Source: Escherichia coli
GTDB taxonomy: Bacteria; Pseudomonadota; Gammaproteobacteria; Enterobacterales; Enterobacteriaceae
Length of the DNA: 64,000 bases
NCBI RefSeq assembly: GCF_001677475.2
Contig: NZ_CP015229.1
Reading direction: 5' to 3' (one strand)
Made by a program: the position numbers. Below, in pieces: positions 12,001 through 18,000 of this stretch. The first letter of the stretch is position 1; each line of letters starts with the position of its first letter.

Positions 12001-15000
12001 GGCGGCAGAGCTGGCTGCGGATATCCGCCGGTTGTGGGCTGAATGGTCCGTGAGTCCGGATGTGACAGGGCAGTATACCCGTCCCGTGCTTGAGCGTTTA
12101 CTGCTGCGGACCTGGCTGCGGGATGGTGAAGTGTTTGCGCAGATGGTCAGCGGTGCGGGAAACGGTCTGGAACGGACGGCGGGAGTGCCATTCTGGCTTG
12201 AAGCGATGGAGCCGGATTTTGTTCCCATGCGCAGTGATGAATCCGCCGGGCTGAATCAGGGGGTTTTTCTTGATGAGTGGGGCAGGCCGAAAAAATATCT
12301 GGTTTATAAAAATTATCCGGTCAGCGGCCGGCAGAGTGATACGAAAGAAATCGCCGCCGGAAAAATGATCCACCTGAAGTTCACTCGTCGTCTGCATCAG
12401 ACGCGAGGCTCATCCATGTTATCGGGGGTGCTGATGCGGATCAGTGCCCTTAAGGAGTATGAGGATGCGGAACTGACAGCGGCGCGTATTGCTGCGGCGC
12501 TGGGACTGTATATCCGTAAAGGTGACGGACAGGACTATGAAGATCCGGGGATCAAAGAAACCGAGCGGGAAGTCCATATCACCCCGGGGATTATTTATGA
12601 CGATTTGCGCAAGGGCGAGGATATCGGCATGGTCAAATCCGATCGTCCCAATCCCAACCTTGAAACTTTCCGCAACGGCCAGTTGCGTGCAGTGGCAGCT
12701 GGCAGTCGTCTGAGTTTTTCCAGTGCGGCGCGTAACTATAACGGCACCTACAGCGCCCAGCGGCAGGAGCTGGTCGAGTCCACGGATGGTTACCTGATCC
12801 TGCAGGACTGTTTTATTGGCGCGGTAACCCGCCCGGTGTACCGGACATGGCTGAATATGGTGGTTGCGGCAGGTCTGCTGAAAATTCCGGCGGATGTGGA
12901 GATGAAGACGCTATATAACGCGACGTATTCCGGTCCGGTGATGCCGTGGATCGACCCGGTTAAGGAGGCTGAAGCCTGGCGGATACAGATCCGGGGGGGT
13001 GCCGCGACGGAATCCGACTGGATCCGCGCAGGCGGGCGCAACCCGGATGAGGTCAAACGTCGCCGTAAGGCTGAAACTGAGGAAAACCGCAGGCTGGGGC
13101 TGGTCTTTGATACTGACCCCGCTAACGACAAAGGAGGCAACAGTGCCGGAACTGAACAACAGCGTCAGCAGGCCACCGACAGCCAGCATGAAGAATAAAT
13201 CCTGGTTCAGGATGCAGGCGGGTGGTCAGGGTGAGGCGGATATTTATATTTATGATGAGATTGGTTTCTGGGGCGTCACCGCGAAGCAGTTTGTCAGCGA
13301 TATGAATGCCCTGGGTGATATCACCCACATTAATCTCCACATCAACTCACCGGGTGGCGATGTCTTTGAAGGCATCGCCATTTTTAATGCCCTGAAAAAT
13401 CACGGTGCGGCCATTACCGTGTATGTGGATGGCGTTGCCGCCTCGATGGCATCCCTGATTGCGATGGCCGGTGACACGGTCATTATGCCGGAAAATGCCT
13501 TCATGATGATCCATAAACCCTGGGGGATCAGCGGTGGTGATGCGGAGAAAATGCGCACTTATGCCGAACGTCTGGACAAACTTGAGTCGGTTATGGTGCC
13601 GGTATATGCGCAGAAAACCGGAAAAACCACCGATGAAATTTCCGCCATGCTGGCGGATGAGACCTGGATGTCCGGTGCCGAGTGTCTGGCACACGGATTT
13701 GCTGACCAGGTGACGCCAGCCGTTAAGGCAATGGCATGTATTCAGTCAAAACGTACAGAGGAATTTAAAAAGATGCCGGAATCCATCCGAAATATGATCA
13801 CGCAGCCACACAACAGTGCCCCGCGTGATACCACAGTGACAATCCCTGCACCGGCGGTAACAGAACCATCACCGGTACCGGCAGTGTCTGATGAGGCGAC
13901 CATTCGCGCCCGCGTTATGGCTGAGCAGAAAGCCCGCATGTCAGGCATTAACGATCTGTTTGCCATGTTTGGCGGGCGCTATCAGGCGCTTCAGGCGCAG
14001 TGTGTGGCCGATCCTGACTGTTCGCTGGAAATGGCCCGCGAGCGCCTTCTGAATGAAATGGGCAAGGAGTCCTCGCCGACCAACAAAAACACACCGGCCC
14101 ATATTTATGCCGGAAACGGCAATTTTGTGGGAGACGGGATCCGCCAGGCGATGCTGGCCCGTGCCGGATTTGAAAATGTCGAGAAGGATAATGTCTATAA
14201 CGGGATGACCCTGCGTGAATGGGCTCGCATGTCACTGACCGAGCGTGGTATTGGGGTGGCCAGTTATAACCCCATGCAGATGGTCGGGCTGGCGCTGACG
14301 CACAGCACCTCTGATTTTGGCAATATTCTGCTGGATGTGTCGAACAAGGGGCTGATCCAGGGCTGGGAGGAATCAGAAGAAACCTTCCAGAAGTGGACCC
14401 GTAAGGGACGCCTGTCAGACTTCAAAACAGCGTATCGCGTGGGGATGGGCGGTTTTGGTTCTCTGCGTCAGGTTCGTGAAGGGGCGGAGTATAAATACAT
14501 CACCACCTCAGATCGCAAGGAGACCATTGCTCTGGCCACTTACGGGGAGATTTTCTCCATCACCCGCCAGGCCATTATCAATGATGACCTGAATATGCTG
14601 GTTGACGTGCCGATGAAGATGGGGCGTGCGGCGAAGGCAACGATTGGTGACCTGGTCTACAAGGTGTTGACGGATAACCCGAAACTGTCAGACGGTAAGG
14701 CGCTGTTCCATGCCGATCACAAAAATATTGCCACCGGCGGGATCTCCGTTTCCGGACTGGATGCGGCCCGTCAGATGATGCGCCTGCAGAAAGAAGGCGA
14801 TCGCGCCCTGAATATCCGTCCGTCCTTTATGCTGGTACCGGTGGCACTGGAGACGGTGGCGAACCAGACCATCAAATCGGCCAGTGTGAAAGGGGCGGAT
14901 GCAAACGCCGGTGTCATTAACCCTATCCAGAACTTTGCTGAGGTGATTGCGGAAGCGCGTCTTGATGCGGCAGATCCGAAAACCTGGTATCTGGCGGCGG

Positions 15001-18000
15001 CACAGGGCACCGACACCATTGAAGTGGCCTGGCTGGATGGTGTGGACACGCCATACATTGATCAGCAGGAAGGTTTCACCACTGACGGTATTGCCACAAA
15101 AATCCGTATTGATGCCGGTGTGGCACCACTTGACTGGCGCGGACTGGTGCGTTCGTCGGTGGCCTGATAACCGCGTTATCACAATCACTGCCCGAAAGGG
15201 CTTTTTTTATGCCTGAAAACAGCCCCCCGGGGGCTGTCCGGAGAGACAGCATTATGGCTAAAAATTTTGTACAGGACGGCACCACCATTGAGCTGGTGAA
15301 TGCCGGGGATCAGACCATTCTGAGCGGTGCCGCTGTGGTGGTTGGCAGCATGGTGGCAGTGACCATTACCGATATTCCTGCCGGGGAGACCGGTGACGGG
15401 TTCGCCGAAGGCGTGTTCCTGCTGCCCAAACAGTCTGCCGACGATATTCAGGCCGGTGTGGCGGTTTATCTGAAGGACGGGACTGTGCAGCCTGCCGCAG
15501 ACGGTGCAGTGGCGGCGGGAATGGCATGGGAGCATGCGCCGTCAGGCACCACCACGGTGGCGGTTAAAATCAATGCCTGATCTGTTTGCGCGAATGTGCA
15601 GCCGGATGGACCTGGCGACCGTACGCATGATGGGGAAAACGGCGGAGATTAACGGCGTAGTGTATGACGTGATACCGGAGTATGAGTCTGCGGATATGGG
15701 GGCGCTTTCCGGCAGTCAGTTGTCACTGGTGGTGTTTTCAGCGCAGTACCGGCCGGCCCGCGATGATGTGGTTGTGTTTGACGGTCGCTCACTGGTGGTG
15801 ACCCGTTATGACACGTACAACGGTAATCCCCGGATTTTTGTCGAACAGGAATAAGTATGGCGATAAAAGGTCTGGCGCAGGCCATGAAAAATCTGGATGC
15901 GATTAACCGCCGTGCCGTTCCCCGGGCTGCCGCCACGACGCTTAATCGTGTGGCGGAGTCCATCATCGCGAAAACGGCCTCTTCGGTTGCCCGGGAGCTG
16001 GCGGTCCCACGCCGTCTCATCCGTGAGCGTATCCGCCTGCAACGGGCCAGCGCAGACAGGGTTTATGCGAAGGTCATCATCAACACCGGTAATCTGCCCG
16101 TCATAAAACTGGGGACGGCCAGCGTGCGGCTTTCCCGCAGAAAGCGGCGAAAGAAAGGTGAGCGTTCGGTCACGAAAGGCGGTGGCAGTGTGCTGATTGT
16201 CGGGAAACGGCGGATCCCGAATGCTTTTATTACCCGGCTGGAAAATGGCCGGTGGCATGTGATGCAGCGTATGCCGTGGGCATCATCGTCCACCGGCGCG
16301 GACAGCAAAGGGAGGCCGAAACGCCACCGTCTGCCGATCGAAGTGGTGAAAATACCGACGGCCAGACCGCTGGCGGAAACCTTTGAGCGCGAACGTGACC
16401 GGATGTACCGGGAGAAATTACCGGAACAGATGATGAAAGCCATGACGCATCAGTTACGCCTGGTGCTGAAAAGAAAATGACAGGGAGGGTGTATGAAACA
16501 CCGTGAAATACGGGCGGCAGTTCTGTCTGCCCTGAAAGAAAATATTTCTGAGCGGGTGAGCTGGTTTGACGGCCGCCCGGTTTTTATTGATGAACAGGAA
16601 CTACCTGCTGTTGCTGTTTACCTGACTGATGCGTCTGCTGCTGACGAGTTCGTTGATGAGGGGACCTGGGAGGCGACACTGCATATTGAAGTTTTTCTCA
16701 GGGCAAAAGAACCGGACTCGGCACTGGATATGTGGATGGAAGAGAAAATCCTTCCTGCGCTGGAGGCGGTTCCCGGCCTCAGTGCGTTACTGCTGAAGAT
16801 GAATCTTCAGGGGTATGACTACCGCCGGGATGATGAGTTTATGATGTGGGGATCGGCAGATCTCCTGTGGAAAATTACCTACGAGATGTGAGGACGATAT
16901 GGCAATACCAAATCCTCTTGAGCCGGTGAAAGGTTCCGGCACCACACTATGGGTGTACACCGGCACTGGTGATGCTTATGCCAACCCGTTGTCAGACGAT
17001 GAGTGGACGCGCCTGGCAAAAATAAAGGATCTGACCCCCGGCGAGATGACGGCAGAATCCTACGATGATAACTATCTGGATGATGAGGATGCTGACTGGG
17101 TATCCACCGGGCAGGGGCAGAAATCTGCCGGTGACACCAGTTTTACGCTGGCCTGGAAGCCGGGCGAGAAAGGGCAGCGCGATTTGATCGCCTGGTTTGA
17201 CAGCAGTGAGACCCGGGCCTACAAAATCCGTTTCCCGAACGGCACGGTGGATGTGTTCCGTGGCTGGGTGAGCGCCATTGGTAAAGCGGTGACCGCCAGA
17301 GAGGTGATCACCCGTACCGTTAAGATCACCAATATCGGCCGTCCGTCGCTGGCGGAAGATCAGGGGGACATCACACCGGTCACCGGTATTACCGTGACGC
17401 CACCAACGGGCAATGTGGCAAAAGGTCAGAATATCACCCTGACCGTGGCTGTTCAGCCGGAAGGGGCGACGGATAAAACCTTCCGCGCCACGTCGGCGAA
17501 TCAGAATTTTGCGACCATTACTGTGAAAGGGAACACGATCACGGTGAAAGGTATTGCGGCAGGTAAAGCGCAGATCCCTGTTGTCACCGGCAATGGTGAG
17601 TTTGCGGCGGTGGCGGAGATCACCGTCACGGATGGCGCTTCAGGCTGAGAGGGGAGATAAAGCATGTTTCTGAAAACAGAACAATTTGAATATAACGGTG
17701 TGTCTGTCACGCTTTCTGAGCTGTCTGCGCTGCAGCGTATTGAGCATCTTGCCCTCCTGAAACGGCGGGCAGAAGAGGCTGAAGTCAGCGGCAACCTGCA
17801 GGTGAGCGTGGAAGACCTTGTCAGAACCGGGGCGTTTCTGGTGGCGATGTCCCTGTGGCATAACCATCCACAGAAAACGCAGTCACCGTCAATGAATGAG
17901 GCCGTGATGAAGATAGAGCAGGAAGTGCTCACCACCTGGCCTGCCGATGCCGTTGCCCGGGCGGAAGAAGTGGTGTTGTGCCTGTCCGGGATGAGTGAGC

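Follow-up and report, generated by a model that had tools for sequence, protein, structure and literature searches.

The open reading frame at 13143–15167 (+) of the window, the whole 64,000-nucleotide stretch of Escherichia coli DNA analysed here, joins a ClpP-like prohead protease, a helical scaffold-like segment and an HK97-fold major capsid protein. Its product is very probably a self-processing polyprotein of a Gifsy-2-type lambdoid prophage, which would assemble the procapsid and then remove its own protease and scaffold parts. The gene is tripartite, the protease being separated from the capsid part by a linker plus helical scaffold-like segment of ~180 aa. The features of the gene and its neighbours are collected in Table 1.

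Table 1. Features of the fusion gene and of the two adjoining genes (positions in the window)
Feature	Position	Strand	Basis
Lambda-family portal gene	11696..13198	+	Pfam Phage_portal_2; directly upstream of the fusion gene
Shine-Dalgarno core GGAGG (within AAAGGAGG)	13133..13137	+	Start-site scan; 5-nt spacer before GTG 13143
Fusion ORF for ClpP-like prohead protease, scaffold-like segment and major capsid protein (putative polyprotein)	13143..15167	+	674 aa plus stop; NF045540, PHROG 133, Gifsy-2 homology
ClpP/S14-type serine protease domain, aa ~21–195	13203..13727	+	Pfam, NF045542, sequence and fold matches to PDB ClpP
Ser101 codon, predicted catalytic nucleophile	13443..13445	+	GVAASMAS motif; equivalent in the alignment to the catalytic Ser of E. 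coli ClpP
His124 codon, predicted catalytic histidine	13512..13514	+	MIHKP motif; aligns with the ClpP catalytic His
Glu173 codon, acidic residue at the ClpP catalytic Asp position	13659..13661	+	Pairwise alignment to ClpP
Variable proline-rich tether, aa 196–250	13728..13892	+	Family alignment, pLDDT, dN/dS; core predicted disordered
Helical central domain, aa 251–375	13893..14267	+	AF2 helices; its place in the protein resembles that of a scaffold or delta domain
HK97-fold major capsid protein domain, aa ~376–674, Mu gpT-like	14268..15164	+	Pfam, Foldseek, profile match
Head decoration (cement) protein gene	15254..15580	+	Pfam Phage_cement_2; PHROG 122, head decoration; directly downstream of the fusion gene

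Open reading frame and start site

Translated as a whole, the ORF has 674 sense codons and a single stop, at its end; no internal stop or frameshift interrupts it, and the chance of an open frame of this length is ~1e-13 at the local base composition. The original prediction had placed the protease and capsid domains in one continuous frame and had named a stop or frameshift between them as the observation that would speak against it. The translation contains neither, and the Pfam matches to CLP_protease and Phage_capsid_4 both lie within this one frame. Promoter and terminator scans within the gene returned consensus-level noise only, and an Rfam search of the gene gave no match.

The GTG at 13143 is preceded by AGGAGG with a 5-nt spacer and was the sole in-frame start with a good Shine-Dalgarno sequence in the scan of the ORF. 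PGAP chose an alternative start, ATG 13188, in the closest complete genome. Since phage cdtI and a further E. coli prophage (L006) have the Shine-Dalgarno sequence and GTG as well but lack ATG 13188, and since the annotated start of the Gifsy-2 fusion gene aligns with 13143, the GTG is probably the better model.

Lambda, as annotated, uses nested products for C/Nu3, and initiation at, for example, Met211 (13773) would yield a protease-less scaffold–capsid protein, so that only a minority of subunits would carry the protease. ATG 13773 falls where the protease gives way to the linker, which is also the point at which a second fusion family, NF045541, begins to align (it shares sequence with the fusion protein from aa 213 onward), and a weak AGGA motif stands 10 nt upstream. 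However, the only good Shine-Dalgarno sequence among the in-frame starts is that at 13143, Met211 occurs in just 5 of 57 homologues, and neither the start-site scan nor the alignment of the 57 homologues revealed a conserved internal start. Nested products are thus quite improbable for this gene, and Met211, with its weak Shine-Dalgarno sequence and its rarity, was rejected as a feature of the family.

Protease domain

Pfam CLP_protease matches aa 45–191 of the fusion protein (E 1.7e-36), and NF045542, the model for ClpP-related head maturation proteases, matches aa 32–190 with 221 bits against a cut-off of 120. ClpP structures in the PDB match the domain both by sequence and by fold, with a target-normalised TM of ~0.8. 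The dN/dS of this part, relative to cdtI and Gifsy-2, is 0.13–0.17.

Across an alignment of 57 diverse homologues spanning 34–76% identity, Ser101 and His124 are invariant (57/57), and so is the SPGG oxyanion motif. At the third position of the triad the protein has Glu where ClpP has Asp; among the 57, Glu occupies this position in 47 and Asp in 6. The substitution could be taken to mean that the domain is catalytically dead and serves as extra scaffold mass only, maturation being left to a host protease or being absent. Against this stand the invariance of the Ser, the His and the oxyanion motif, the acidic character of position 173 in 53 of the 57 homologues, and the NF045542 score well above its cut-off. 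We regard a dead protease as highly improbable.

Linker and central domain

The tether following the protease is the least conserved and most gapped segment of the family alignment. In the AF2 model its pLDDT falls below 50 at aa 222–234 and 239–248, and its dN/dS of 0.23–0.33 (relative to cdtI and Gifsy-2) is the highest of the internal segments.

The AF2 model of the central domain presents helices at residues 251–274, 281–289, 295–307, 328–341 and 357–366, and a second disordered stretch at aa 313–324 lies within it. Its dN/dS against the same two phages is 0.15–0.25. No Pfam family matched aa 251–375. The domain was also considered as a homologue of lambda Nu3, which was rejected: BLASTP gave a motif-like alignment with E 4.3, the hhalign probability was 0.19%, and there was again no Pfam match.

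Capsid domain and neighbouring genes

Pfam Phage_capsid_4 covers aa 382–671 (E 6.5e-56), Pfam Mu-like_gpT matches the capsid domain as well, and the profile of the domain matches the capsid protein of phage JBD30 in the PDB. Foldseek with the full-length model retrieved ClpP structures only; a separate model of the C-terminal part reached HK97, encapsulins and many phage capsids with a probability of 1.00. Across the protease, central and capsid parts, dN/dS ranges from 0.13 to 0.25 relative to cdtI and Gifsy-2. Judged by these ratios, purifying selection acts on every segment of the fusion gene.

The last 56 nt of the portal gene overlap the start of the fusion gene in another frame. The portal protein is 21% identical to lambda gpB (E 3e-8). 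On the other side, the decoration protein has 51% identity with its positional counterpart in Gifsy-2, and BLASTP gave no alignment between it and lambda gpD.

An IS21-family insertion disrupts the tape-measure gene of this prophage. Because of this insertion, the copy in the window may never make infectious virions.

Family membership and distribution

The protein reaches 994 bits with NF045540 (scaf_prot_MCP1; ClpP-like prohead protease/major capsid protein fusion protein), whose cut-off is 475, and its aa 32–672 align to positions 2–651 of the 652 in the model. The features that define this family are all found here, namely the whole-model score, an N-terminal S14 domain with its Ser and His, and an in-frame HK97-fold domain, and the protein shows no difference in kind from the other members. 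PHROG 133 also matches it over its full length.

Near-full-length copies of the fusion occur in 633 of 5426 complete E. coli genomes. The architecture is carried by phages cdtI, mEp460, mEp213, VT1-Sakai and CP-1639, several Stx2 phages and Pseudomonas F10-like phages, with amino-acid identities of 95–99% to CP-1639, several Stx2 phages and VT1-Sakai, and ~75% to cdtI and mEp460. Clustering at 50% identity leaves more than 100 representatives that contain it. In the cdtI group, DNA similarity with this gene drops after ~nt 1493, inside the capsid domain, a pattern that indicates mosaic exchange there.

Could the fusion be a decay accident, in which a frameshift or deletion joined separate genes in a defective prophage, or else a sequencing error? 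The prophage is indeed damaged elsewhere, by the IS21 element noted above, and accidental joins do exist among the database relatives: one protein (P0115) joins the fusion protein to a tape-measure protein, and 1159-aa "portal-protease-capsid" proteins are on record. The latter were rejected as a natural form; they carry a 1-nt deletion just after the GTG start and, since their clusters are singletons, are best read as mutations or sequencing errors. However, homologues with 34–99% identity in E. coli, Salmonella, Pseudomonas and Paracoccus keep this layout in a single frame, and the same combination of ClpP and gpT-like parts has been reported in Paracoccus prophages (PMC6536676). Phages that form plaques or were induced retain it (mEp460, mEp213, cdtI, LLS and Pseudomonas F10), every segment is under purifying selection, and a dedicated curated model exists in NF045540. 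The accident reading is effectively refuted, and we give it practically no probability.

Protease-less proteins (P0162, P0212 and P0268) were considered as a natural split form, for which the evidence was not convincing. One of them lies on a 1.5-kb contig, and another, in a scrambled prophage remnant, is preceded by a distinct ClpP ORF that is read in a different frame.

Comparison with Gifsy-2, lambda and HK97

A tripartite protease–capsid gene was described for the lambdoid phage Gifsy-2 by Effantin et al. (2010), as cited in PMC12315714 and PMC8538268. These two papers, together with PMC8814770, give for Gifsy-2 an autoproteolytic maturation to a capsid protein of ~300 aa and a T=7 shell with a trimeric decoration protein. 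The Gifsy-2 gene, STM1034.3n (Effantin et al. 2010, Virology 402:355), has the same order of ClpP-like protease, central domain and capsid in one ORF. The two products are collinear and 60% identical end to end (674/696 aa), the 22 residues fewer in the window protein falling mainly in the linkers; identity is 57–59% in the protease and central parts and 70% in the capsid part. The gene order is likewise common to both: small and large terminase, a small protein, portal, fusion, decoration, Z, U, V, G, T and H. They differ in host, Gifsy-2 residing in Salmonella whereas the window copy belongs to an E. coli prophage with a disrupted tape-measure gene.

Lambda has the same functions, namely a protease, a scaffold, a capsid protein and a decoration protein; in the window, terminase and portal are lambda-family and the tail genes lambda-like. 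In lambda, however, the head functions are separate genes, with an S49 protease C, a nested Nu3 scaffold and D placed before E, whereas here a single gene is followed by the decoration gene. BLASTP of the fusion protein against lambda C and E gave best E values of 0.15 and 1.5 respectively, neither significant, so that on sequence similarity the gene is not a set of lambda C/Nu3/E homologues joined together.

In gp5 of HK97, which has the same capsid fold, an N-terminal helical segment is fused in place of a separate scaffold, and assembly follows a protease-dependent logic that we propose for the window protein too. The HK97 protease gp4, in contrast, is a separate gene and is herpesvirus-like (S78/U35), whereas the protease here is ClpP/S14 and covalently attached. 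The HK97 capsid is stabilised by cross-linking without a decoration protein, whereas the window module has a cement protein.

Proposed assembly and maturation

We propose that the ORF is translated into a single polypeptide of ~74 kDa, whose C-terminal HK97-fold domain would assemble into the procapsid shell on the portal. Protease and middle domain would in this way end up in the shell interior, where the helical middle part would serve as an integral scaffold, comparable to the delta domain of HK97. At high local concentration there, the Ser101/His124 protease would cut within the flexible linkers, releasing itself and the scaffold part, so that roughly 300 residues remain as the mature capsid protein. 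Expansion of the shell would follow on DNA packaging, with stabilisation by the decoration protein from the adjoining gene. For this copy we infer that the protein processes itself, where it is cut, that the middle domain is a scaffold and that the shell has T=7 geometry.

ClpP normally works as heptameric rings. The mismatch in symmetry between such rings and hexamer/pentamer capsomers was counted against the polyprotein explanation. The flexible tether of ~50 residues could permit ring assembly despite this mismatch.

The polyprotein may also not be the sole functional form. Subunits could be of mixed kinds if processing were partial and regulated or if initiation within the gene took place at a low level, and the tethered ClpP-like domains might need to form ClpP-style rings inside the shell. 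We consider this unlikely. If true, tethered ring formation would be an assembly-activated protease switch, one that is structurally uncharacterised.

Head lineage and annotation

The self-processing polyprotein proposed above belongs to an arrangement that is already known and ordinary, since it has been described for Salmonella phage Gifsy-2 and bears its own name in NCBI genome annotation. The original prediction had said as much of some lambdoid prophages, had set the fusion apart from the separate C, Nu3 and E genes of lambda, and had taken the gene mainly as a pointer to the head lineage of the phage. All three points hold: the curated NF045540, the PGAP product name and the Gifsy-2 description account for the first, the single gene and the BLASTP comparison with C and E for the second. 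The HMM domain annotation and head-module comparison proposed with it were run; they gave the Pfam and NCBIfam domains and the synteny with Gifsy-2, and the lineage pointed to is of the Gifsy-2/cdtI/mEp460/VT1-Sakai type. Only the portal is distantly lambda-like among the head proteins compared with lambda (C, E, D and portal), and significant similarity to C, E and D is lacking; by these comparisons the gene points to a head lineage of its own, accompanied by terminase, portal and tail genes of lambda type.

The main value of the assignment is one of annotation: it places the head module in a lineage common in E. coli and implies no new biology. The major capsid protein is hidden in a gene that is often labelled only "Clp protease", "head maturation protease" or "Nu3". 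An automated survey of capsid proteins obtained no HK97-fold capsid protein for Gifsy-2 (PMC8814770, where no reason is given), and concealment under such gene labels may be the cause of that gap.

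Reading frame and start codon

The original prediction placed a prohead protease and the major capsid protein in one continuous frame, and translation bears this out: the gene (Table) reads through 674 sense codons to one stop at its end. Given the base composition of the late region around it, a frame open for this long would arise by chance with a probability of about 1e-13. Pfam profile searches found both CLP_protease and Phage_capsid_4 in the product.

In the mechanical ORF list the frame reaches upstream to a GTG at 12999, and the only in-frame start with a good ribosome-binding site is the GTG at 13143, which AGGAGG precedes by 5 nt. 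The RefSeq (PGAP) start in the closest complete genome is the ATG at 13188. The Shine-Dalgarno sequence and GTG of 13143 are kept in phage cdtI, another E. coli prophage and Gifsy-2, and the ATG is not; cdtI and the E. coli prophage have CCG in its place, and the Gifsy-2 gene is annotated from the position equivalent to 13143. The start given in RefSeq is thus probably too short by 15 codons. Codons 1-20 are poorly conserved, and the start of the gene overlaps the last 56 nt of the portal gene in a different frame.

About twelve database proteins of 1159 aa have the portal, the protease and the capsid protein run together in a single ORF. At the one locus examined (L006, 1501-4980), a one-base deletion just 3′ of the GTG start fuses the portal and protease-capsid frames. 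Since all of these proteins are singleton clusters, they are likely mutations or sequencing errors.

Domain architecture

NF045540, the NCBIfam model for this type of fusion, covers the protein with its whole length at 994 bits (cut-off 475); NF045542 ("head maturation protease, ClpP-related") also scores above its cut-off, PHROG 133 spans the full length, and Mu-like_gpT is a weaker Pfam match. An AlphaFold2 model built on 57 homologues (mean pLDDT 86) divides the protein into the four AlphaFold2 parts listed in the Table. In Foldseek searches the N-terminal domain resembles ClpP crystal structures with a target-normalised TM score of about 0.8, and residues 250-674, modelled separately, match HK97 gp5, encapsulins and many phage capsid proteins at a probability of 1.00. 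Of the solved structures, that of the Mu gpT-type capsid protein from Pseudomonas phage JBD30 is the nearest by sequence profile. No Pfam family was found for the central domain at E-values up to 10.

Features of the fusion gene, its product and the surrounding prophage (window nucleotides unless marked aa)
Feature	Position	Strand	Detail
Portal gene	11696-13198		
Fusion gene	13143-15167	+	674 aa
CLP_protease	aa 45-191		Pfam, E 1.7e-36
Phage_capsid_4	aa 382-671		Pfam, E 6.5e-56
Compact ClpP-like domain	aa 21-195		AlphaFold2 model
Disordered proline-rich tether	aa 196-250		AlphaFold2 model, pLDDT <50 at aa 222-248
Helical segment	aa 251-375		AlphaFold2 model; second disordered stretch inside, aa 313-324
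Mixed alpha/beta domain	C-terminal part		AlphaFold2 model
Tail chaperone G ORF	17664-18095		
GGGAAAG heptamer	18071-18077	+	lambda-type slippery sequence
T ORF	18122-18526		
Tape-measure fragments	18507-20615 and ~23008-23475		either side of IS21-family element
IS21-family element	20610-23021		transposase and IstB helper ATPase
istA	20704-22203		IS21-family element
istB	22200-22955		IS21-family element
Tail-tip J-like ORF	26265-29519	+	1084 aa
tRNA genes	2822-2897 and 2999-3075	+	anticodons CAT and TCT
STnc100 sRNA match	3877-4052	+	

Catalytic residues and selection

By pairwise alignment, Ser101, His124 and Glu173 correspond to the Ser-His-Asp triad of E. coli ClpP. Ser101, His124 and the SPGG glycines are invariant in the 57 homologues (34-76% identity), and 53 of them have Glu or Asp at position 173. 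The idea of a catalytically dead ClpP-like protease is contradicted by the invariance of this Ser and His. When codons are compared with those of cdtI and Gifsy-2, the protease has a dN/dS of 0.13-0.17, the central domain 0.15-0.25, the capsid domain 0.16 and the tether 0.23-0.33; therefore every part of the gene is maintained as coding sequence in this frame. Nested internal initiation, by which part of the product would start within the gene, is a weak alternative: the sole candidate, Met211, has a weak Shine-Dalgarno sequence and is Met in only 5 of the 57 homologues.

Relation to lambda and Gifsy-2

The contrast drawn earlier with the separate C, Nu3 and E genes of lambda is correct for architecture. 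The fusion gene is not those lambda genes joined, there being no significant similarity to gpC or gpE. BLASTP detected no significant similarity to gpC, gpE or gpD of lambda, and the match of the central domain to Nu3 is not significant (hhalign probability 0.19%), whereas the portal (E 3e-8), terminase and tail genes, and only these, are of lambda type. The shell, protease and cement genes therefore constitute a non-orthologous module joined to lambda-like packaging and tail genes.

That the architecture was already known in lambdoid phages is confirmed by the curated family NF045540 and by the Gifsy-2 protein, which aligns with the window protein from end to end (416/696 identities). The Gifsy-2 head module has the same gene order: terminase subunits, small protein, portal, fusion gene, decoration protein and Z, U, V, G, T and H homologues. 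The decoration proteins (107 aa in Gifsy-2, 108 aa in the window) are 51% identical. The fusion gene is thus an ordinary member of a known, curated and experimentally studied family. The Gifsy-2 gene was reportedly the subject of Effantin et al. (2010), whose abstract is said to describe a ClpP-like part at the N-terminus, some 200 central residues that may serve in scaffolding, and the capsid protein at the C-terminus, a layout that agrees with that of the window gene.

Near-full-length homologues were found by tblastn in 77 phage records, including Fels-1 (63%), Gifsy-2 (60%) and, at 57%, many F10-like phages of Pseudomonas aeruginosa. Well over 100 full-length fusion proteins, down to 36% identity, are present in a library of representatives clustered at 50% identity, and a ClpP and gpT-like fusion of about 700 aa is described in 17 Paracoccus prophages (PMC6536676). 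Among 5426 complete E. coli genomes, 2060 have a match to the gene, 633 of them at a coverage of at least 80%; PGAP annotation has a product name specific to this fusion for such copies. An accidental fusion through prophage decay is contradicted by this wide conservation and by viable phages with the same gene. A scrambled prophage remnant in another genome (L010, 2411-4386) has a 201-aa ClpP ORF, a 38-nt gap and a 443-aa scaffold-capsid ORF in a different frame, an arrangement left by the decay of a fusion gene or else a rare split form.

At the DNA level the gene is 95-98% identical to CP-1639, several Stx2a/Stx2d-converting phages, VT1-Sakai, 1720a-02 and ASU11, and about 77-80% identical to the group of mEp460, cdtI and Ayreon. 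Nucleotide similarity to the cdtI/Ayreon/phi458 group ends within the capsid domain, near nt 1493, dividing the gene into nt 1-1493 (window 13143-14635) and nt 1494-2025 (window 14636-15167). The protease and central regions are nearer to cdtI, and the capsid region is equally far from cdtI and Gifsy-2, a pattern that suggests recombination within the gene.

Proposed processing

The reading with the best support is that of a polyprotein that processes itself. Its capsid domain would build the shell, enclosing the protease on its tether together with the helical middle domain; the protease would then cut away itself and the middle domain, leaving a capsid protein of about 300 residues, and the decoration protein would attach once the shell had expanded. 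The arrangement of the domains, the conservation of the catalytic residues, the selection on the gene and its homology were observed in the gene itself, and its processing, cleavage sites and scaffold role are proposed by analogy with Gifsy-2, HK97 and lambda. The cleavage sites would most plausibly lie in or near the two disordered stretches. For Gifsy-2, passages in two later papers report, after Effantin et al., that the decoration protein sits as a trimer at the threefold axes (PMC8538268) and that the capsid has T=7 geometry (PMC8814770).

Condition of the prophage and other features

The tape-measure gene, unbroken in the nearest complete genome, is split in the window by an IS21-family element, and for this reason the prophage is probably unable to make tails, with its head gene intact. 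IS629 lies within the orthologous protease-capsid gene of VT1-Sakai (AP000400.1) and within the gpU gene of CP-1639 (AJ304858.2); insertion-sequence damage to the late operon is recurrent among close relatives.

The match to E. coli 08-00022 (NZ_CP013662.1) reaches 99.9% only across 8037-20610, which holds the genes for the head and the proximal part of the tail. On either side (1-8036 and 20611-64000) identity is 97-99%, with indels and replaced segments such as 815-3088 and 54552-56138, which makes the prophage a mosaic when set against any of the complete genomes searched. The counterpart of the J-like ORF in the nearest complete genome is a PGAP pseudogene without its C-terminus, and small unrelated ORFs and a tail-fibre gene separate from it lie downstream. 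The slippery heptamer, near the end of the G ORF and upstream of the T ORF, is in a position consistent with the conserved G/GT −1 frameshift.

Two prophage tRNA genes in the early/regulatory region resemble the tRNA clusters of EHEC lambdoid phages, and an STnc100 match lies about 800 nt downstream of them. The window has 10 Chi sites (GCTGGTGG) against 2.3 expected; eight lie within the first 9.7 kb (55-9679), six of these in the plus orientation. Chi-rich lambdoid phages with a Gifsy-2-type head module have been described (PMC12315714).
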